31,386 nucleotides of DNA from IMG/VR virus record IMGVR_UViG_2713896900_000011. One strand, given 5' to 3'. Position 1 is the stretch's first letter. Each line of letters begins with the position of its first letter. The notes under the pieces are model-generated. The model had not been told where the DNA came from and searched no databases. It was given only the letters and a program-made list of their open reading frames with translations. The position numbers were made by a program, and so were the translations under genes. Below, piece by piece: positions 6,604 through 28,153 of this stretch. This DNA is from a virus. Its lineage: Duplodnaviria > Heunggongvirae > Uroviricota > Caudoviricetes.

Positions 6604-6902
6604 CCGTTTAACTCCGTGGTTAATGGGTGCAACTATTTTCTGTTGTGCAGAGCATGAGACGCTATTTGACCTGACTGGTCAGTGGATGAAACAACAGATA
6701 AAGAAAAGGCGGACAATTCGCCCGCTATCCTGATTTGTACTCACTCATTTTCCAACTGACAGTTTACATAGCCCAAACGCTATCAAATCTGACAGCCTGC
6801 TTTGAGCGAACAGCAGACATTCATTAATATGTTTGTTAGGCTAACTTTATATGATGATTACTGAAATTGACCTTAGTTTGAGAATTGCATTAGGGGAATA
6901 AA
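6604..6902. promoter_or_regulatory. Divergent intergenic region: expected late promoter for the FI operon (- strand) and promoter/RBS of the cargo gene (+ strand)
   Basis: A 299-bp AT-rich non-coding gap between divergent genes. An AGGGGA Shine-Dalgarno lies about 7 nt before the ATG at 6903. A TGTTGT...ACAACA inverted repeat sits at 6641-6646 and 6691-6696. I could not place exact promoter elements. Confidence 0.4.
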
Positions 6903-8009
6903 ATGGATGTCAATGAACTTAGAGAGTTACTTATCAAGTATAATGGCCTTCAAAATACTGATGAAGTCTATACGTTTTATTATGATGAAACGAATAACAT
7001 TCGAAAACTATATTTAAAAGATTCTGGCTTTAATGTTGTAAAGGCGGATAACTTCATCCTTGCAGGAATACTACACAAAGGGTTAAGCACTGACAGCGAT
7101 TATTCAACCCTGTTTCAAAAGCTTAATCTTCAAAAAAGTGTCAATGAGTTAAAACTCAGATATATCGCTAAGGGTAGTTTTTTGGATATGCTTAAATCTG
7201 ATAAGCTTTTAATTATTCTAAACTGGCTTATCGAAAACAATTTCTACATCCATTATTTTAATCTTAATATCACATACTGGTCTATTATTGACATTGTTGA
7301 TTCTATTATTGGAGAGCTACACAATCCTTTTTATATCATGAACCACATGTCACTTAAGAGCGATTTTTATGAGCTTGCCAATAGCAATCCCGATGTTTTC
7401 CTGAATGCTCTACATAAATTTAACTACCCCGATATTCCAGAAGAAAAAATTTATGAGTTTTGCCTCTGGCTTATCGATTTTACATGCATGCACAGTTGTA
7501 TGCTGCCAGATTTTCGAGCACACGCACTCGAAAATTTGGTTAAAGAATCTCTAAAAATCGAAGAACTACCGTTCATATCGGGATTTCATGGTCGAAAACT
7601 GATCGATAGCTTTATGGTATTTTATTTAAGAAACTTGTATCTATTTAAAAATTCCGTTCACATATTTGATGAAGAAAAAAGCATTCAAGATGAAGTTAAA
7701 AACTTCCCGTTAACTGAAAATGGCATACCAATACAGAATCATGAATTCGTTAAATCCCACAACTCAGAGGCTATCCAACTATCTGATGTTATCGCAGGCT
7801 TTTTGGGTAAGTATTTTTCTTACTTAAAAGATGTAAATGACGAGCAATTAGCGATTGATAAGTCAGCCTTAACGAGCAAGCAATTTAAGACCCTTTCTGC
7901 GTTAAAACACATTATTGATGTTTCTGATGATGTTAGCAGAGGATTTTTTAATGAAGTTAGCAGCGAGGGAGAGCGACGGAGAAATAATCGTTTTTTACAT
8001 GGCGTATAA
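6903..8009 (+). CDS. AT-rich cargo protein (368 aa) at the Z/fun-equivalent locus; DUF3800-like motifs; candidate anti-phage/abortive-infection protein
   Basis: A visibly low-GC gene on the opposite strand to the flanking late genes, with a strong SD. The N-terminal motif YTFYYDETNN and the C-terminal motif AIQLSDVIAGFL resemble the conserved DESG and QxADxxAG motifs I associate with DUF3800. The family assignment is from memory, not a search. Confidence 0.6.
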   Translation: MDVNELRELLIKYNGLQNTDEVYTFYYDETNNIRKLYLKDSGFNVVKADNFILAGILHKGLSTDSDYSTLFQKLNLQKSVNELKLRYIAKGSFLDMLKSDKLLIILNWLIENNFYIHYFNLNITYWSIIDIVDSIIGELHNPFYIMNHMSLKSDFYELANSNPDVFLNALHKFNYPDIPEEKIYEFCLWLIDFTCMHSCMLPDFRAHALENLVKESLKIEELPFISGFHGRKLIDSFMVFYLRNLYLFKNSVHIFDEEKSIQDEVKNFPLTENGIPIQNHEFVKSHNSEAIQLSDVIAGFLGKYFSYLKDVNDEQLAIDKSALTSKQFKTLSALKHIIDVSDDVSRGFFNEVSSEGERRRNNRFLHGV

Positions 8010-8108
8010 TCGTAAGGGGTAAATTCTGCTTTTGGCACAGGGCGAACTGTCAGATTGGTTTTCACTCTGTGCCATAGATGTATAAACTCACATCAGAGCT
8101 AATACGAT

Positions 8109-19197: not shown

Positions 19198-19370
19198 TGT
19201 CAGGAGTCCTGAATAGTGATTAGAGGAGTCACATGTCGGCATCAGTTTCCCGACGATGCGCATCCTCCGCCATCAGTCCCGGATGGCTTATCACTGACAC
19301 AACAGCACCTTAGCGAATCGCGTGGCGCGACTCAGTAGCCTTGCCGTGTATTCATCACGGCGAGGTATTC
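19198..19370. promoter_or_regulatory. Divergent late promoter region between O (- strand) and P (+ strand)
   Basis: A non-coding gap between divergently transcribed late operons; in P2 this holds the Ogr-dependent PO and PP promoters. I did not find a perfect TGT-N12-ACA element by eye. Confidence 0.4.
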
Positions 19371-21143
19371 ATGACCATCACCACAGACACCACTCTTTTA
19401 CACGACCCGCGTCGTCAGGCGGCGCTGCTGTACTGGCAGGGGTTTTCCGTGCCGCAGATTGCCGCCATGTTGCAGATGAAACGCCCGACGGTGCAGAGCT
19501 GGAAACAGCGCGACGGCTGGGACAGCGTTGCCCCCATCAGCCGTGTCGAAATGAGTCTGGAAGCGCGGCTGACCCAGCTCATCATCAAACCGCAGAAAAC
19601 CGGCGGTGACTTCAAGGAAATTGACCTGCTGGGACGTCAGATTGAACGACTGGCACGGGTAAACCGCTACAGTCAGACCGGCAACGAGGCAGACCTTAAT
19701 CCGAACGTCGCTAACCGCAACAAAGGCGGGCGCCGCAAACCGAAAAAGAATTTTTTCAGTGACGAGGCCATCGAAAAGCTGGAGCAGATTTTCTTTGAGC
19801 AGTCTTTCGAATATCAGTTGCACTGGTATCGCGCCGGGCTTGAGCACCGCATCCGCGATATCCTGAAATCCCGCCAGATTGGCGCGACGTTTTATTTTTC
19901 CCGCGAGGCGCTGCTGCGCGCCCTGAAAACCGGTCATAACCAGATTTTTCTGTCGGCCAGTAAAACACAGGCGTATGTGTTCCGCGAATACATCATCGCC
20001 TTTGCCCGGCTGGTTGACGTTGACCTGACCGGTGACCCGATTGTCCTGGGCAATAACGGCGCAAAACTGATTTTTCTCGGCACCAACTCCAACACCGCAC
20101 AGAGCCATAACGGCGACCTGTACGTCGATGAGATTTTCTGGATCCCGAATTTTCAGGTACTGCGTAAGGTGGCATCAGGTATGGCCTCACAGAGTCACCT
20201 GCGCTCGACCTATTTCTCCACCCCGTCCACGCTGGCGCACGACGCCTACCCGTTCTGGTCGGGTGAACTGTTCAACCGGGGACGCGCCAGCGCCGCCGAA
20301 CGCGTGGAAATCGACGTCAGTCATAACGCCCTTGCCGGAGGTCTTCTCTGTGCGGACGGCCAGTGGCGGCAGATTGTCACCATTGAGGACGCCCTGAAAG
20401 GTGGCTGCACGCTGTTCGACATTGAGCAGCTTAAACGCGAAAACAGCGCCGACGATTTTAAAAACCTGTTCATGTGTGAATTTGTTGACGACAAGGCGTC
20501 GGTGTTCCCGTTCGAGGAGCTGCAACGCTGCATGGTCGATACGCTGGAAGAATGGGAAGACTATGCACCGTTTGCCGCAAATCCGTTCGGCTCCCGCCCG
20601 GTATGGATTGGTTACGACCCGTCACACCGTGGCGACAGCGCCGGATGCGTGGTGCTGGCACCGCCGGTGGTGGCCGGTGGCAAATTCAGGATCCTTGAGC
20701 GTCACCAGTGGAAAGGCATGGACTTTGCCACCCAGGCAGAATCCATCCGCAAACTCACCGAAAAATATAACGTTGAATACATAGGGATTGATGCCACCGG
20801 CCTCGGTGTCGGTGTGTTCCAGCTCGTGCGCTCGTTCTATCCCGCCGCGCGCGATATCCGCTACACGCCGGAAATGAAAACCGCAATGGTGCTCAAGGCA
20901 AAAGACGTTATCCGCCGTGGCTGTCTGGAATATGACGTCAGCGCCACCGACATCACCAGCTCGTTTATGGCTATCCGCAAGACCATGACCAGCAGCGGAC
21001 GCAGCGCCACCTATGAGGCCAGCCGCAGCGAGGAAGCCAGCCACGCCGACCTCGCCTGGGCGACCATGCACGCCCTGTTAAATGAGCCACTCACCGCCGG
21101 TATCAGCACCCCGCTGACATCCACCATTCTGGAGTTTTACTGA
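19371..21143 (+). CDS. P: Terminase large (ATPase) subunit P (590 aa)
   Basis: The start MTITTDTTLL... gives 590 aa, equal to P2 gpP. The stop overlaps the Q start (TGATG). Confidence 0.9.
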   Translation: MTITTDTTLLHDPRRQAALLYWQGFSVPQIAAMLQMKRPTVQSWKQRDGWDSVAPISRVEMSLEARLTQLIIKPQKTGGDFKEIDLLGRQIERLARVNRYSQTGNEADLNPNVANRNKGGRRKPKKNFFSDEAIEKLEQIFFEQSFEYQLHWYRAGLEHRIRDILKSRQIGATFYFSREALLRALKTGHNQIFLSASKTQAYVFREYIIAFARLVDVDLTGDPIVLGNNGAKLIFLGTNSNTAQSHNGDLYVDEIFWIPNFQVLRKVASGMASQSHLRSTYFSTPSTLAHDAYPFWSGELFNRGRASAAERVEIDVSHNALAGGLLCADGQWRQIVTIEDALKGGCTLFDIEQLKRENSADDFKNLFMCEFVDDKASVFPFEELQRCMVDTLEEWEDYAPFAANPFGSRPVWIGYDPSHRGDSAGCVVLAPPVVAGGKFRILERHQWKGMDFATQAESIRKLTEKYNVEYIGIDATGLGVGVFQLVRSFYPAARDIRYTPEMKTAMVLKAKDVIRRGCLEYDVSATDITSSFMAIRKTMTSSGRSATYEASRSEEASHADLAWATMHALLNEPLTAGISTPLTSTILEFY

Positions 21144-22165
21144 TGAGCAAGAAAAAAGGGAAAACACCGCAACCTGCGGCAAAAAAAATGACCGCCAGCG
21201 CCCCGAAAATGGAGGCATTCACCTTTGGTGAGCCGGTGCCGGTACTCGACCGCCGTGACATTCTGGATTACGTCGAGTGCATCAGTAACGGCAGATGGTA
21301 TGAGCCACCGGTCAGCTTTACCGGTCTGGCAAAAAGCCTGCGTGCTGCCGTACATCACAGCTCCCCGATTTACGTCAAACGCAATATTCTGGCGTCGACA
21401 TTTATCCCGCATCCGTGGCTTTCCCAGCAGGATTTCAGCCGCTTTGTGCTGGATTTTCTGGTGTTCGGTAATGCGTTTCTGGAAAAGCGTTACAGCACCA
21501 CCGGTAAGGTCATCAGACTGGAAACCTCACCGGCAAAATATACCCGCCGTGGGGTGGAGGAGGATGTTTACTGGTGGGTGCCGTCCTTCAACGAGCCGAC
21601 ACCTTTCACGCCCGGCTCCGTGTTTCACCTGCTGGAGCCCGATATTAATCAGGAGCTGTACGGCCTGCCGGAATATCTCAGCGCCCTTAACTCTGCCTGG
21701 CTGAATGAATCGGCCACGCTGTTCCGCCGCAAGTATTACGAAAACGGCGCACATGCCGGATACATCATGTACGTCACCGATGCCGTGCAGGATCGCAACG
21801 ATATCGAAATGCTTCGCGAAAACATGGTGAAGTCGAAAGGCCGCAACAACTTTAAAAATCTGTTTCTCTATGCCCCGCAGGGGAAAGCCGACGGCATTAA
21901 AATTATCCCGCTCAGTGAAGTGGCAACGAAGGACGATTTTTTTAATATCAAAAAAGCCAGCGCCACTGACCTGCTGGACGCGCACCGCATCCCCTTTCAG
22001 TTGATGGGCGGCAAGCCGGAGAACGTCGGGTCGCTGGGTGATATTGAGAAAGTGGCAAAGGTCTTTGTCCGCAATGAGCTTATCCCGCTACAGGACAGGA
22101 TTCGGGAAATAAACGGCTGGCTTGACCAAGAAGTTATTAAATTCAAAAATTATAGCCTAGACTAG
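21143..22165 (+). CDS. Q: Portal (capsid) protein Q (340 aa)
   Basis: Size and synteny match P2 gpQ, co-transcribed with P. Confidence 0.9.
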   Translation: MSKKKGKTPQPAAKKMTASAPKMEAFTFGEPVPVLDRRDILDYVECISNGRWYEPPVSFTGLAKSLRAAVHHSSPIYVKRNILASTFIPHPWLSQQDFSRFVLDFLVFGNAFLEKRYSTTGKVIRLETSPAKYTRRGVEEDVYWWVPSFNEPTPFTPGSVFHLLEPDINQELYGLPEYLSALNSAWLNESATLFRRKYYENGAHAGYIMYVTDAVQDRNDIEMLRENMVKSKGRNNFKNLFLYAPQGKADGIKIIPLSEVATKDDFFNIKKASATDLLDAHRIPFQLMGGKPENVGSLGDIEKVAKVFVRNELIPLQDRIREINGWLDQEVIKFKNYSLD

Positions 22166-22182
22166 GTATTTTAGATAATAGC

Positions 22183-22200
22183 GCCGCTAGTAATAGCGGC
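22183..22200. terminator. Candidate bidirectional intrinsic terminator hairpin between convergent Q and the cargo operon
   Basis: GCCGCTA-GTAA-TAGCGGC: a 7-bp perfect stem with a 4-nt loop, flanked by T/A-rich sequence on both sides, lying between the Q stop (22165) and the last cargo stop (22220). Confidence 0.4.
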
Positions 22201-22219
22201 TTATAGTTCAGAAAAACAC

Positions 22220-22867
22220 TTATTCCTTCGGTTCATGATAGAAGTTTATGGGATAATGAATCACTTCATAATCTAAATTTGATACAGAATGTTTATGAGT
22301 ACTATAAAATACTAGTGGATTCTTATCACACTGCTGAATATTTATTTCTCTAGACGCATGAATTTTGGGCGCATTTTTAGTCAAGTAGGCAATATACTGT
22401 TGCATTACAGCAGAGCAAAGCTTATTTTTTGTATAGATAATTACACCACCCGATGCACTATCAACAGTCCCTGTACTATATCGCTCAGTAAGTTGCGAAT
22501 ATCCCTTAAAAAGGTACGAATATCCTGATGAGTGTTTCTTGGCTTCGCCATGCCATGTAAAATCTGCTAATTGAATTGTAATATCGCAATGACCGCGCTG
22601 ATTAACTTCATGATAAGCTCTTATCCCTAAGAATTCGTTATCTATTATTCCCAGAAGATGAAGTGTCAATTGGTCTTCGGTAAGTTCAAAGCCCATTTTG
22701 TTTGCATTTTGCTCAATTTTTCTTACTGCATAATCAAGTAACTCACGAACAAAAGCCTTAAAGTTATTATAAGATTCCATAGCATATGTCACCGCTGTAA
22801 GAATCTTATTAGCATTATCTATTACGTTATTTTTACGAATATCTGCCAGACTGAAACGTTGGACCAT
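22220..22867 (-). CDS. Cargo operon gene 3 (215 aa): hypothetical protein with a possible PD-(D/E)xK-like nuclease motif
   Basis: AT-rich. Its ATG lies 1 nt after the gene 2 stop and is preceded by a GGGGAG Shine-Dalgarno. The segment GHCDITIQLADFTWHGEAKK has the D-x13-E-x-K spacing of a PD-(D/E)xK core; this is an inference only. Confidence 0.6.
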   Translation of the reverse strand: MVQRFSLADIRKNNVIDNANKILTAVTYAMESYNNFKAFVRELLDYAVRKIEQNANKMGFELTEDQLTLHLLGIIDNEFLGIRAYHEVNQRGHCDITIQLADFTWHGEAKKHSSGYSYLFKGYSQLTERYSTGTVDSASGGVIIYTKNKLCSAVMQQYIAYLTKNAPKIHASREINIQQCDKNPLVFYSTHKHSVSNLDYEVIHYPINFYHEPKE

Positions 22868-22868
22868 G

Positions 22869-23288
22869 TCAACTCCCCACTTTCTTTAAAGAAAAGAAGG
22901 GGAAAATGAAATCCTCATAATCAGTTAAAATATCACCTGTTACAGGATGTTCAAATATATGATTTTTTTCCGCATCCATAACCTCACCAACGGTTACCGG
23001 ATAAAAATCGTCATTTTCATCAACAAAAAAATACTCCAATCTTAAAAGACTTACTTTAGGATTACATAAAACCTGAATGGCGATATAAATTTTATCGTTA
23101 TTTATTTCATCCGTAAAAGAAAGATTACCACCATTCTCTTTGATATACAGATTAACAAGATCTGGATAGCTCATTAAACAGTTTTTTTTACATTGCGGGG
23201 AGAGCTTCATCAATGCATTATAGAGAGCGCATGCGATTTCACCGACATTCGCATCAGTAACGCATATTTCTTTAATAATGTCTGCCAT
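22869..23288 (-). CDS. Cargo operon gene 2 (139 aa): hypothetical protein
   Basis: AT-rich. I take the start as the ATG at 23286-23288 (MADIIKEI...), preceded by a strong GGGAGG Shine-Dalgarno. The track's start 5 codons upstream overlaps that SD. Confidence 0.6.
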   Translation of the reverse strand: MADIIKEICVTDANVGEIACALYNALMKLSPQCKKNCLMSYPDLVNLYIKENGGNLSFTDEINNDKIYIAIQVLCNPKVSLLRLEYFFVDENDDFYPVTVGEVMDAEKNHIFEHPVTGDILTDYEDFIFPFFSLKKVGS

Positions 23289-23316
23289 TGATTTCCTCCC
23301 CATACCTACTACCTTC

Positions 23317-24480
23317 TTAAACGATTAAACTCATTAAACGTTCAAAATCGTCCCGTCCCAGACAATTATTAATAATAGCATAGTTTACTGACGTGGAGCT
23401 AGAACCTCCGAGGTAACGGCGAAGAGAGCCGGGAATGATCAACTCAAGATCATCATCTAGTGATAGAAGCACATTCACTCTTGAAATTTTTATACCAATC
23501 TTGTAAAGACCTATCTGCCCTACTGCTTTAATTCCTTCTTGGTTAAAGATATCATCACGCAAATCTTTTTTTGCTTCTTTTTTCTTTTCCTGATGCGTAG
23601 TTCCCTCTGGAGTATAGAAAGATAATTCAAAAACTTGATAATCGCTTGCATTAAAAGGATAGGTGTTTTGAGCAAAAATTTGTTCAATTAGAGGGAAAAA
23701 GTCTTTTTCTGTCGAAACAAAATCAGCCCCCATATAATCGTATAATTTTCTAACAATTACGGTTTTAGAAAATGTAATTGTCTCTCCAATAACATTTTTG
23801 GGAGCATCAATAAGTATATTGATAGTGTTATCTTGTATATTTAAAATACAAACATCAAAACATTGTCTTCTAACTTTCTTTTTGGCTATGATTTCATCGT
23901 AGCTTTGATATTGTGGGATTGTTTGCGGTGAGACCTTTTCTTTTATTACTTGCTCCCTGACTGATGAAAAAAGGGCTATCACTTGATTGCTGTCAGTAGA
24001 GCAAAAGATTAGTTGAGGGCTATTTTTAGGTGTGGATAATAACTGTTGCTCATTAAGAATGTAACTTGATACATTTTGTAAAATAGTAGTGTTTGCCCAT
24101 TCTGTCTGAATGGCTAAGCTTAGCCCTGTCATGGTTGGAGCATCAATTGCCAAAGAAAAAATAGCCTTATCGCCATAGAAAAACTGACTAAAAAGAAGGT
24201 CATTAATTTTCTTTAACAATGAGTCAAATTTAACTCTGTCCGTGTCTCTAATTTCAATCAACTGCTCTTTAACTTTATTAAAAGTCGCATCCTTACCGCG
24301 ACCAAGAGAAAAACCTAATGACGACAAAACAGATTTTACTATAGACCAACTTATTCTATTAAATAGACAATTCAGACTTTTTAGTTCAATGTCAGACAGT
24401 GACGATTGTACTGTATTATTTGCTGCTAATACAGCCTGAGGGACAGATGAATTTACTGTTGTAGGGACAATGCCTGTCAT
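23317..24480 (-). CDS. Cargo operon gene 1 (387 aa): hypothetical protein
   Basis: AT-rich. The track ORF begins at a TTG at 24525; the first ATG (24478-24480, MTGIVPTT...) has a GGAG Shine-Dalgarno about 6 nt upstream. I recognise no domain. Confidence 0.6.
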   Translation of the reverse strand: MTGIVPTTVNSSVPQAVLAANNTVQSSLSDIELKSLNCLFNRISWSIVKSVLSSLGFSLGRGKDATFNKVKEQLIEIRDTDRVKFDSLLKKINDLLFSQFFYGDKAIFSLAIDAPTMTGLSLAIQTEWANTTILQNVSSYILNEQQLLSTPKNSPQLIFCSTDSNQVIALFSSVREQVIKEKVSPQTIPQYQSYDEIIAKKKVRRQCFDVCILNIQDNTINILIDAPKNVIGETITFSKTVIVRKLYDYMGADFVSTEKDFFPLIEQIFAQNTYPFNASDYQVFELSFYTPEGTTHQEKKKEAKKDLRDDIFNQEGIKAVGQIGLYKIGIKISRVNVLLSLDDDLELIIPGSLRRYLGGSSSTSVNYAIINNCLGRDDFERLMSLIV

Positions 24481-24598
24481 TGCAAACTCCAGTTCCGCTA
24501 ACAAAACCTCTAAGAATATTGGCAAGCAAGTATCTTCAAATATCAGGGAAAGTCAATCCAATAGCTCTCTTTTTGCGATGGGAAACTGTTAGCGCGCA

Positions 24599-24617
24599 GT
24601 GCTTTCCCCGCCTCGCC
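24599..24617 (-). other. cos site (19-nt cohesive-end sequence)
   Basis: The minus strand reads GGCGAGGCGGGGAAAGCAC, which I recall as the P2 19-nt cohesive end. Confidence 0.75.
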
Positions 24618-24944: not shown

Positions 24945-25163
24945 CTATCGTCTGCGTGGTGGTGGCGTAACTCTTGATTGACCGATATGATTAAACCGCC
25001 CGTAATTATCCCGGACTATTTCGGCACACCCGACTAGCTCATCGGGCGTCAGATTTTCGTTGACCATAATCCGCTGTAAACGCTGAACAATAGCCATCAG
25101 CTTGATATTTTTAGTTTTATGGTGTGGTATCTCACCTGGTATTCTGTGCATTATCCAAGCCAC
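24945..25163 (-). CDS. Hypothetical small protein (72 aa)
   Basis: An ORF between the ASCH-like gene and cos, with nothing recognisable; the call rests on coding context only. Confidence 0.3.
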   Translation of the reverse strand: MAWIMHRIPGEIPHHKTKNIKLMAIVQRLQRIMVNENLTPDELVGCAEIVRDNYGRFNHIGQSRVTPPPRRR

Positions 25164-25606
25164 CCGTTTTGCTGTGCACGCTCCATCTGTTCATCTGAAT
25201 AGTTCCATGCTCCATCCGTGGCAACCATTGCCCCGCCAGACATCCCCGTCTCTGGTTCATACATAACAGCAAGGCCGAGCTGATGCATAATTTCATGATT
25301 AATTCTGAATACCAGGCCACGCTCACTAAGTTCTTTCCAGTTCACAATCTTATATGCGCCCGTATTAAGCAGCTCAATACTTAGCAAGACATAATCTTCC
25401 AGCCAGTCTGACAGGTCAGTAACATCTGTTATCCGGGCTTCAACCTTTCGCCCCGTAAACACACCCTGCACCCATTCATGCAAAATCAACGTGTCCCCGC
25501 ACTCATAATTACGGTCATTTTTCCGAAACTCTGCGCGTTTCTTTCCTTCCAGCACAAGGTCAAAATATTTTGCGTGCAGCTTTACCTCGTGAATTTTGGC
25601 CATCAT
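25151..25606 (-). CDS. Hypothetical protein (151 aa) with an ASCH/PUA-like N-terminal region and an HExxH motif
   Basis: The ATG at 25604-25606 lies 2 nt after the A stop, with a GGAG Shine-Dalgarno. The N-terminal half (KIHEVKLHAKYFDLVLEGKKRAEFRKNDRNYECGDTLILHEW) looks ASCH-like to me; the C-terminal half contains INHEIMHQLG (HExxH). Confidence 0.5.
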   Translation of the reverse strand: MMAKIHEVKLHAKYFDLVLEGKKRAEFRKNDRNYECGDTLILHEWVQGVFTGRKVEARITDVTDLSDWLEDYVLLSIELLNTGAYKIVNWKELSERGLVFRINHEIMHQLGLAVMYEPETGMSGGAMVATDGAWNYSDEQMERAQQNGWLG

Positions 25607-25608
25607 TT

Positions 25609-27888
25609 TCACTCCATTACTGTTGAGAATCCCGGCCACTCATCAGCGACCGGATACGTGAATTTTTTCCCGTCATAATTTACGGTCGCGCCACGCGCCA
25701 GCGCCTCAAGCTCCCATCGCTGCGGCCTGATACCGTTCTGAGCAAGGTCAACGCGGATACGGGTAATTTGCATTCTTTCCGACCGGGTCAGTCTGGCCGA
25801 TGGTGCAATTTCATGTGGTTTTAACGGGCTTCCGTTTCTTTGCTGACGACTTGGCGTTCTCCGACCGTGTTTTAATGCACCTCTGAGCGCCCTCACGACC
25901 TCCGGGTCACTCCATTCGATAACACCGTCATCAACCAGATTAAGCACTGCTGCGGCGTGCTCAGAAGGTGTGGGAGCCGGTAACGAAGTATCACCACCGG
26001 TGAGTTTTCCACAGTTATTGACAGGACTCCGAGGCGCGGCGATGCCGCTTTTTAACGTCAAAGGCTCAACGACCGGCACTTTCGGAACAATGCGCCAGTC
26101 CGTCGTTCTGGTGATATGAATATGACGCGCGCCGAGATGCGGCGCGTAAATGCCGACCACTCTCTCGACTTCTTCCTCGTACTCGTTAACTTCATCCGAC
26201 GGGCTACGGGCGACTCTGACAGTCTGGCAATCACGCGGAACATTTGCCCCACCCTGCGCGCTGATATACAACGCAAAATCACCACTGTCTGCGGCGGCAC
26301 GTGCAGCCTCAACGCGTTCGTCAAACTCATCAGCAATGCTGACGCCGCGAGGCAATTTGCGTAGTTCACGGTAAGCCCCCATTGTCGGCAGACCAACCGT
26401 TTTAAATTGCGGAATGCGCCACGTTGACGCCCATGCGGTAACAGCAGCAGCTGTGTCTTTCAGCGGCCTGCCGGTATCGTTATCGAGCTGCCCATCCAGT
26501 GCATAGCCGTCGATGTTTTTTGAAATGTATTTCGCGATATATCCCGCTGCACCGCCCCGGTTAAGGTGTTTTGCCTGAAAACGGTTTCGCGCGGCTCCTC
26601 TTTCGTCGCCATCCTCTTTGAGCGCATAGCGACGCATGATTTCGATAATCTGGTTACGCTGGCGTGGATTACAAAAAAGCATCATATGCCAGTGCGGTGT
26701 TCCATCGTGGTGTGGCTCGACGACTCGCAAACCGTAGACCTGTAAATCATTATCCTTGAATGCCGTGCGCATCAGGCTCCAGATACGGCAGAGATAACGC
26801 TGCGCATCCTTTGGATTAAATGCCTCATCGTTCCAGCCGTGATTTAGCTGGACGGTTTTACTTTCGCCTTTTCCGACCTGACGTGTCGGGTGATACTTTG
26901 ACGGCGTGGTCAGCGTGATAAACATCCCCACATCGCCCTCTGCGGCGGCGTAACGCTCAATACCGGCAATGGTGTTCATCAGCTCCATCCGGCGAATTTC
27001 TGGATTAGAAATACTGCCCATCACCTTACTGATAAGGTCGATGCGCTCGCCGGTTTCCCTGTTTTCAAGGTCACACGATTTAAGAAATTCCAGATTTGCC
27101 TGGCGGCGTGCACGCACATCACGAATGGCATGTTTACTGGCATAAGGAGAACGGTCTTTATTGACCTCCCCGACAGCAATCAGTAACGCCTCATGCCAGC
27201 GCATACGCTGGCCTTTAAGCTGACTAATCCACCACTCATCGTTAAACAGACGGGCAATGGCAGAATATGCCTGCCTCGTGGTCATCTGTCCTTTACGGTA
27301 TTTTTTCCAGTAGAGAGGGGAAATATTGAAAGCACGTGCAGCGCCAGCAACATGACCATAGAGGTGAGCCTGCGCCTCATCCGTAAACAGCGATTCTTTT
27401 TCGCCATGCGCATCCACCCAGGCATCGCAGAGTTCCTCATACATCATGAAAAGCTGCGATGAAATACGGGCGGCAAACTTTTTCAGCTCCTTATCATTCA
27501 TCCCCGGCAGACGCGCATAATGGTCACGCTCTACCAGAAACAGCAACGACGCGTCGGTATTCATTTCATGGCGCTGATTCACGCGCTCAATGCGCGGCCA
27601 TAAACGACGCTGAAAAGTGGATGTGAGGAAATAAAACCCGTGCACCGGGCTTTTATTGCGCCGGATGTAGTCATAGCGTGAAGTAAACAGCGAACGCAAA
27701 AAGTAAGGCAGGCGGTTAATCGTGGATAAAACACCTTGCACCTGACGCATCTCGTCACGTGTAAGGGGTCTTTCGCGCCCGACGGCCTCGCGTGGCGCGT
27801 TCCATGCATAAGCACCGGTAAACGTCTTACCGGTGCCTGCGGCAAATGCTGACGGAGGGACAAAATGCCCGGAGGCTTTAACGGCCAT
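25609..27888 (-). CDS. A: Replication initiation protein A (rolling-circle initiator, about 759 aa)
   Basis: The start MAVKASGHFVPPSAFAAGTGK... matches my recollection of the P2 gpA N-terminus (P2 gpA is 761 aa). The track's ORF starts 14 codons upstream at 27930. Confidence 0.85.
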   Translation of the reverse strand: MAVKASGHFVPPSAFAAGTGKTFTGAYAWNAPREAVGRERPLTRDEMRQVQGVLSTINRLPYFLRSLFTSRYDYIRRNKSPVHGFYFLTSTFQRRLWPRIERVNQRHEMNTDASLLFLVERDHYARLPGMNDKELKKFAARISSQLFMMYEELCDAWVDAHGEKESLFTDEAQAHLYGHVAGAARAFNISPLYWKKYRKGQMTTRQAYSAIARLFNDEWWISQLKGQRMRWHEALLIAVGEVNKDRSPYASKHAIRDVRARRQANLEFLKSCDLENRETGERIDLISKVMGSISNPEIRRMELMNTIAGIERYAAAEGDVGMFITLTTPSKYHPTRQVGKGESKTVQLNHGWNDEAFNPKDAQRYLCRIWSLMRTAFKDNDLQVYGLRVVEPHHDGTPHWHMMLFCNPRQRNQIIEIMRRYALKEDGDERGAARNRFQAKHLNRGGAAGYIAKYISKNIDGYALDGQLDNDTGRPLKDTAAAVTAWASTWRIPQFKTVGLPTMGAYRELRKLPRGVSIADEFDERVEAARAAADSGDFALYISAQGGANVPRDCQTVRVARSPSDEVNEYEEEVERVVGIYAPHLGARHIHITRTTDWRIVPKVPVVEPLTLKSGIAAPRSPVNNCGKLTGGDTSLPAPTPSEHAAAVLNLVDDGVIEWSDPEVVRALRGALKHGRRTPSRQQRNGSPLKPHEIAPSARLTRSERMQITRIRVDLAQNGIRPQRWELEALARGATVNYDGKKFTYPVADEWPGFSTVME

Positions 27889-28153
27889 GTGAGCCAAAAG
27901 CCTCTGAACAACGCTTGCTGAGTTGCTCAACCTGCGCGTTTAAATCAGCAAAAGATTTTGCGCTTCCGGTCAGAATATCGTGATGCATCATGCCGGAAAC
28001 GAGCTGGCTTAATTTCGGGTAATAACCAACCACCGCCAGCCATTCCTGACCGGCGTTTTTACCGCTTTCCGCTCTCTTTTTCTCGTGGAGAATAAACTGA
28101 AAGCTGTCACTGGTAACGACATAACGTTCGCCAACTTCGATACGAATACTCAT
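27878..28153 (-). CDS. Hypothetical early-operon protein (91 aa)
   Basis: A small ORF directly upstream of A on the same strand, in the position of the P2 orf80-83 cluster. Confidence 0.5.
   Translation of the reverse strand: MSIRIEVGERYVVTSDSFQFILHEKKRAESGKNAGQEWLAVVGYYPKLSQLVSGMMHHDILTGSAKSFADLNAQVEQLSKRCSEAFGSHGR

Follow-up and report, generated by a model that had tools for sequence, protein, structure and literature searches.

The interval between gpA and gpQ of phage P2 has been described as a hotspot for defence genes (PMC9122126; PMC13586616). Toxins and partition genes are also found in such hotspots (PMC9122126), so that the location of a gene in one of them is no proof of a role in defence. 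From this interval Rst_3HP has been reported, a system of three hypothetical-protein genes ('hp + hp + hp') that protects against P1 (Rousset et al. 2022). For phage lambda, the crystal structure of RexA has revealed the RdgC/IML3/CHL4 fold, and both RexA and RdgC, the latter a modulator of RecA and of replication restart, are non-specific DNA binders (PMC11077077). RexA, the sensor of Rex exclusion, is thus a precedent for an RdgC-type fold at work in a prophage exclusion system, its partner RexB being a membrane protein; what this fold senses is a long-open question for lambda Rex. A further point of comparison is given by the STAND immune proteins (Avs, bNACHT), of which most characterised members carry the effector domain at the N-terminal end. 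An NTPase sensor and an effector united in one protein are typical of such single-protein immune sensors.

The stretch of DNA analysed here, referred to as the window, is 31,386 nucleotides long (IMG/VR record IMGVR_UViG_2713896900_000011) and is a P2-like prophage, whose core genes were identified by PHROG profiles (Table 1). Between the portal gene Q and cos lies a cargo island with a GC content of about 34% (range 32-39%), against about 55% for the phage backbone, as seen in composition profiles. According to the list of open reading frames (ORFs), A, B and C are the only genes between Q and cos, and they are co-directional on the minus strand. The P2-type cos core, recognised by exact match, is taken as the gpA-side border of the cargo. 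At the other end, just 3' of C, the hairpin probably acts as a bidirectional terminator. The promoter-like site upstream of A is regarded as a weak and tentative candidate, since such sites are not more frequent in the region than expected from shuffled sequence. Here the cargo stands between Q and cos, whereas in phage P2 cos is found about 250 bp from Q, with old/tin beyond cos (cloned P2 sequence); this arrangement would place the cassette at the Q end of the packaged linear genome. Between cos and gpA, a 162-aa ORF (25151-25639, minus strand) matches phrog_1812 and, in part, phrog_986 ('RNA-binding protein'); it overlaps the gpA start by about 30 nt, and the equivalent place in Escherichia coli STK77-E has no annotated CDS.

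Table 1. Features of the cargo region and its flanks in the window, with the evidence or particulars of each
Feature	Position	Strand	Particulars
Large terminase gpP	19341-21143	+	PHROG profile
Portal gpQ	21143-22165	+	PHROG profile
Low-GC cargo island with C, B, A	22170-24580		Between portal gene Q and cos; composition profiles
GC-rich hairpin GCCGCTA-GTAA-TAGCGGC	22183-22200		Between the convergent stops of Q (22165) and C (22220)
Gene C	22220-22867	-	ATG start, 215 aa; putative PD-(D/E)xK nuclease, putative effector
Predicted nuclease core of C, residues 64-146	22430-22678	-	Order alpha1, beta1, beta2, beta3, alpha2, beta4
Codon of C E64	22676-22678	-	Nuclease core
Codon of C D95	22583-22585	-	Nuclease core
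Codon of C E108	22544-22546	-	Nuclease core
Codon of C K110	22538-22540	-	Nuclease core
Codon of C Q125	22493-22495	-	Nuclease core
Codon of C Y130	22478-22480	-	Nuclease core
Gene B	22869-23288	-	139 aa from the RefSeq start; readable from 23303 (144 aa)
Gene A	23317-24480	-	387 aa; longest ORF to 24525, TTG start
Promoter-like site TTGACT, 16 nt, GATACT	24529-24556	-	About 48 nt 5' of the gene A start; consensus scan
P2-type cos core GGCGAGGCGGGGAAAGCAC	24599-24617	-	Exact match; 0.01 expected by chance
Replication protein gpA	25609-27930	-	PHROG profile

Several described systems were considered as possible identities for the cassette. Rst_3HP also comprises three hypothetical-protein genes in the P2 gpA-gpQ hotspot, but its proteins are of different sizes (333, 359 and 227 aa, compared with 387, 139 and 215 aa for A, B and C), and it was ruled out because the best BLASTP match of A, B and C to hp1, hp2 and hp3 (Table S2A) had an E value of 0.09. 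Classical restriction-modification was likewise discarded, the operon consisting only of A, B and C with no Pfam methyltransferase match in the A and B families; in contrast to type II systems, C is linked to A and B instead of to a methyltransferase partner, and it may lack a recognition sequence. For the three window proteins, no family was matched at E<=1 in PADLOC-DB v2.0.0 (2023), and nothing significant was obtained from Pfam and NCBIfam (June 2026). Their RefSeq accessions are not mentioned in the literature searched, nor in the supplements of Rousset 2022, two tables of which were available in part, and the literature yielded nothing relevant on RdgC-like anti-phage proteins or on RexA-like proteins with a nuclease. 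Judged against these releases, the cassette is uncatalogued, and a more recently named system may correspond to it.

In the initial annotation, C had been singled out as the possible carrier of a PD-(D/E)xK nuclease core and as the likely effector of the operon, based on an Asp that follows a hydrophobic stretch and precedes E-A-K by 13 residues, with the caveat that this motif could be a coincidence. The coordinates, length and sequence of the ORF, and its last place in the cargo operon, agree with the ORF list; an identical ORF is found in E. coli STK77-E (WP_059274821, a hypothetical protein in RefSeq). The peptide concerned, GIRAYHEVNQRGHCDITIQLADFTWHGEAKK, corresponds to C residues 81-111. 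The described spacing is present, E108-A109-K110 being reached 13 residues after D95, but D95 is preceded by R-G-H-C and not by a hydrophobic stretch, a hydrophobic beta-strand (ITIQL) following it instead. As for coincidence, the caveat was justified for the bare pattern: D-x(8-20)-[DE]-x-K occurred in 49.6% of 5000 shuffles of C, which is not above chance, and C itself contains a second, irrelevant match at D199. What lifts the motif above chance is its conservation across homologues together with the predicted fold, and not the pattern itself.

A word-indexed search recovered 36 close homologues of C, and an exhaustive profile search over 1.84 billion representatives extended the family to 534 clusters at 50% identity (E<=1e-3), 411 of which reached E<=1e-10. 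Among 50 representatives, the most distant at 25% identity, E64, G92, D95, W105, E108, K110, G122, Q125, R129 and Y130 are invariant. The same ten residues and L126 are invariant in all 76 distinct phage-borne C sequences (26-100% identity), in which the remaining columns average about 35% identity; at E87, D or E is found in 60 of the 76 and Q in 14. Residues conserved in at least 90% of sequences number 17 in C, three in A and one in B, and among the three proteins only C displays an invariant catalytic-type constellation.

The AlphaFold2 model of C (pLDDT 88.6, pTM 0.85; 26-sequence alignment) contains, according to DSSP, the elements H64-75, E82-85, E96-100, E103-111, H117-130 and E139-146, which make up the canonical alpha-beta-beta-beta-alpha-beta core of the restriction-endonuclease-like fold. 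Structure prediction had been suggested in the initial annotation as a check, and the fold that it returned is that of a nuclease. In the model alpha1 carries E64, beta2 begins at D95, beta3 contains E108-x-K110, and Q125, R129 and Y130 belong to alpha2; an acidic residue at the beginning of beta2 with (D/E)-x-K on beta3 is an arrangement expected of the PD-(D/E)xK superfamily, and we infer that E64, D95, E108-x-K110 and Q125/R129/Y130 form the active site. Comparison of the model with PDB structures placed C closest to small restriction enzymes of the BamHI type, namely OkrAI (3odh), BamHI (1bam), BstYI (1sdo) and BglII (1d2i). The predicted fold is alike, yet identity to BamHI-like enzymes is 8-9% and there is no similarity at the profile level: hhalign of the C family profile with BamHI (a sequence identical to 1bam) gave a probability of 0.4%, the profile found no nuclease among PDB sequences and only chance-level matches, and a Pfam scan of 50 family members gave no match. 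As far as the model can tell, the relation of C to known nucleases is a structural one only.

The same data bear on the view that the motif is coincidental, or that the nuclease fold of C has degenerated and now serves binding alone. The occurrence of the bare pattern in half of the shuffles and the missing sequence similarity to known nucleases would suit such a view; it is nevertheless extremely improbable, since the catalytic-type residues are invariant in sequences that vary so widely in their other columns, and since the predicted fold matches that of active enzymes. Inactive PD-(D/E)xK domains usually lose their catalytic residues. The invariance of D95, E108 and K110 in 76 of 76 sequences and the canonical core of the model thus uphold the nuclease core originally proposed: there is little doubt in our minds that C is a PD-(D/E)xK nuclease with an intact active site, and it is very probably, as predicted from the model, a catalytically competent, metal-dependent endonuclease.

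The context of C was followed in 95 loci with a C homologue, taken from annotated phages, GTDB genomes and IMG/VR, in which A, B and C were sought by iterated HMMs. In 93 of them A-B-C are colinear on one strand, while in the two others the contig breaks off immediately upstream of C; the linkage holds at C identities of 26-47% and in a divergent branch with a longer C. P2-type portal, terminase or gpA genes flank the cassette at 39 loci, while the other 56 belong to other phages, where it follows antiterminator Q and precedes stx1A, or lies between a Q-like antiterminator and holin, beside an integrase, beside a tail gene or near a CI-like repressor; temperate phages commonly carry their morons at such places. 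The carriers are P2-like, lambdoid and other temperate phages of Enterobacterales, Moraxella and Acinetobacter, and the cassette is mobile between phage types. The Stx1a-converting phage Stx1_499 (LC567825; L001, 3460-5567) encodes a diverged cassette, C being 35% and A 25% identical to the window proteins; this copy follows antiterminator Q, lies directly upstream of stx1A and is oriented against late transcription, and its genes are all annotated as hypothetical. Of 5426 complete E. coli genomes, 23 carry this Stx1 variant at >=99% identity, one of them that of an O145:H28 strain, whereas the window variant occurs in a single one of the 5426, STK77-E, where all three genes are hypothetical in RefSeq; such rarity is as expected if the cassette is rapidly exchanged cargo.

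In the divergent branch (IMG/VR loci L083-L095) the C-like ORFs are 265-295 aa long and only their N-terminal ~130 residues align (tblastn); iteration of the HMMs was needed to recover the A-like (~350-370 aa) and B-like (~134-146 aa) genes. At several of these loci, which belong to P2-type phages, the cassette is inverted and shares the strand of Q.

The C domain is also found in fusion proteins. In several relatives it forms the C-terminus of STAND proteins with a NACHT (or NB-ARC) domain and HEAT repeats, in one it follows HEAT repeats alone, and in another it is joined to an S24 (LexA/UmuD-type) peptidase; D, E-x-K and Q...RY are kept in every fusion protein inspected. The cyanobacterium Fischerella sp. 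CENA71 encodes a protein of 1198 aa in which NACHT and HEAT repeats are followed by a C-type nuclease domain at the C-terminus (L097, 6001-9597; P0073), whose gene stands alone among housekeeping genes with A and B absent nearby, and similar NACHT-HEAT-C fusions occur in several metagenomic proteins. On a metagenome contig (L096, 984-2054; P0118), A- and B-like genes precede a C domain that is followed by a C-terminal S24 peptidase. The STAND fusions are the strongest sign of, and suggest by analogy, a portable immune effector in the C domain. They share with Avs/NLR-like STAND systems the logic of a sensor plus a nuclease with intact catalytic residues, although their nuclease is C-terminal, unlike the N-terminal effector of most characterised STAND proteins. 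The cassette differs in that it lacks an NTPase, no P-loop, NACHT or NB-ARC match being obtained in A, B or C with Pfam, and in that the nuclease forms a polypeptide of its own, accompanied by two partners; an Avs/STAND identity was therefore ruled out, the NTPase being present only in the fused relatives elsewhere. The fusions also raise the possibility that A and B fill the role of the NTPase-repeat module. Among defence candidates, PDC-S54 of PADLOC was matched by 13 of 50 C family members over profile positions ~247-371 of 410, a stretch that corresponds to the nuclease core in the C-terminal part of the profile. PDC-S54 is a longer, single-gene candidate in contrast to the three-gene cassette, C of the window has no match to it at E<=1, the family members that do match being distant relatives, and no mention of PDC-S54 was found in the literature searched.

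For gene A, the RefSeq start at 24480 was preferred because of the conserved start MTG.VP. Two methods assign its predicted model to the RdgC/RexA/CENP-L-N fold; in the comparison with PDB structures, Foldseek matched RdgC (E 1e-5, probability 1.0) and CENP-N (E 9e-4), and RexA itself was absent from the top structural matches although the RdgC-type fold was matched. No Pfam, NCBIfam, PADLOC or PDB sequence match was found for the window protein and 32 family members. The pI of A is 5.7 in the window, which is not basic, against a family median of 8.3. By analogy with RdgC and RexA, A is considered a putative DNA-binding sensor or regulator. Like lambda RexAB, the cassette is a prophage accessory whose larger component has an RdgC/IML3/CHL4-type fold, a predicted one in the case of A, and both are lysogen-expressed from a moron-type position, expression of the cassette being a prediction. 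RexB, however, is a membrane protein, whereas the three cassette proteins all appear soluble and the effector is a putative nuclease: Kyte-Doolittle hydropathy over 19 residues peaks at 1.49 in A, at 1.14 in B and at 0.85 in C, and a value of 1.6 is reached by three of 72 B and two of 81 A relatives. With no polytopic membrane partner among A, B and C, the cassette was ruled out as a RexAB system. The S24 fusion and the RdgC-like fold of A give a hint of a tie to RecA or the SOS response.

These features could also be read as those of a phage life-cycle module, in which an RdgC-like modulator of RecA and a nuclease would serve the recombination or replication of the carrier phage itself. PD-(D/E)xK exonucleases are often included in phage recombination modules, and the action of RdgC on RecA and replication restart, as well as the S24 peptidase fused to one C relative, would be in line with this. 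The location of the cassette speaks against it: in phages that are not related to one another, the cassette occupies moron sites and not the modules for replication and recombination. Its GC content also departs from that of the backbone, it is missing from nearly all phages closely related to that of the window, and it has its own putative promoter and runs against the flanking late operon. A function in the carrier's own life cycle is accordingly held to be very improbable.

Gene B encodes an acidic, soluble protein (pI 4.4 in the window, family median 4.65) that matches phrog_11490. No recognisable domain was found, with no Pfam or PDB profile match (the Pfam scan took in 37 family members), and the sequence is very variable, G118 being the sole residue conserved in at least 90% of sequences. 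The B stop and the C start are separated by 1 nt in the window, and across loci the two genes overlap with a median of -4 nt. B may act as an adaptor or inhibitor of C, a putative role suggested by analogy. The fast evolution of A and B and the slow evolution of C fit a variable sensor or regulator combined with a conserved effector. The coupled or overlapping B-C arrangement, with a small and acidic B, would also be found in an addiction or toxin-antitoxin module where C is the toxin, B a labile acidic antitoxin and A a regulator, the module stabilising the prophage or cassette with defence at most as a side effect; moreover, C is similar to the CdiA-CT toxins, nucleases that small immunity proteins hold in check. 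We find this distinctly unlikely, given that a third gene, for a protein of 350-390 aa, is present in every complete locus and is not needed by a simple two-part module, that a rapidly exchanged and rare cassette (one genome in 5426 for the window variant) does not look like successful addiction, and that the STAND fusions point to immunity. There is some overlap with the defence reading, many such modules being defence systems themselves.

On balance, we lean towards the reading in which a prophage-borne, uncharacterised A-B-C cassette serves in defence and has C as its nuclease effector. The role of effector would fall to C because it alone has an invariant catalytic-type constellation and because the same domain ends STAND proteins. 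The cassette would be mobile moron-site cargo of temperate phages, placed in the window at the gpA-gpQ hotspot, that guards the lysogen against other phages. By analogy with RexA/RdgC, with immunity proteins and with BamHI-type dimers, it can be proposed that A recognises infection by a DNA-linked cue, for example phage DNA that is entering or replicating, or intermediates of recombination, while B, translationally coupled to C, would tether C or hold it inactive; upon the trigger, C would be released or assembled into an active dimer and would cut phage DNA, host DNA or both, which would halt the infection. As there is neither a methyltransferase nor an NTPase, self-protection would have to be regulatory, exerted through A and B, and not based on DNA modification.

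It could be argued instead that A-B-C form a constitutive, methyltransferase-free restriction complex in the style of Type IV systems (McrBC), in which A recognises modified or non-self DNA and directs C to it, with no sensing and no cell killing. The absence of a methyltransferase is part of this proposal, which nonetheless appears unlikely: known multi-subunit Type IV systems have an NTPase or translocase, which the cassette lacks, and B is left unexplained. The nuclease domain is, furthermore, the one found on STAND sensors, whose logic is that of ligand-triggered activation, and RdgC and RexA bind DNA non-specifically (PMC11077077).

Within the defence reading, a more far-reaching proposal can be put forward tentatively, as a possibility on which we would not insist: that a DNA-encircling A with the RdgC/RexA fold and an acidic B license a restriction-fold nuclease without methylation or NTP hydrolysis, in answer to phage DNA or to RecA-linked recombination or replication intermediates, and that they represent a new, widespread anti-phage system. 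If true, this would be the first RexA-type fold wired to a soluble nuclease effector, and it could show what the fold senses in Rex-type exclusion. A protein with the predicted RdgC/RexA fold paired with a putative nuclease is an easier biochemical handle than RexB on that question. If the cassette defends its host, a compact system of about 2.3 kb, with no NTPase and no methyltransferase, joins the known repertoire. In Shiga-toxin-producing strains, superinfection and the ecology of toxin phages may be influenced by the Stx variant that lies between antiterminator Q and stx1A. Uncharacterised nuclease-containing candidates are common in defence hotspots, and among the many of them this cassette is a well-supported one.

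A second low-GC island (33-36% GC) is located among the tail genes of the window (6650-8050), at an accessory site of the P2 Z/fun type. It contains an ORF of 368 aa (6903-8009, plus strand), whose RefSeq relatives are named 'DUF3800 domain-containing protein' and whose full-length version is found in six of 5426 complete E. coli genomes; this ORF may be another cargo or defence gene.
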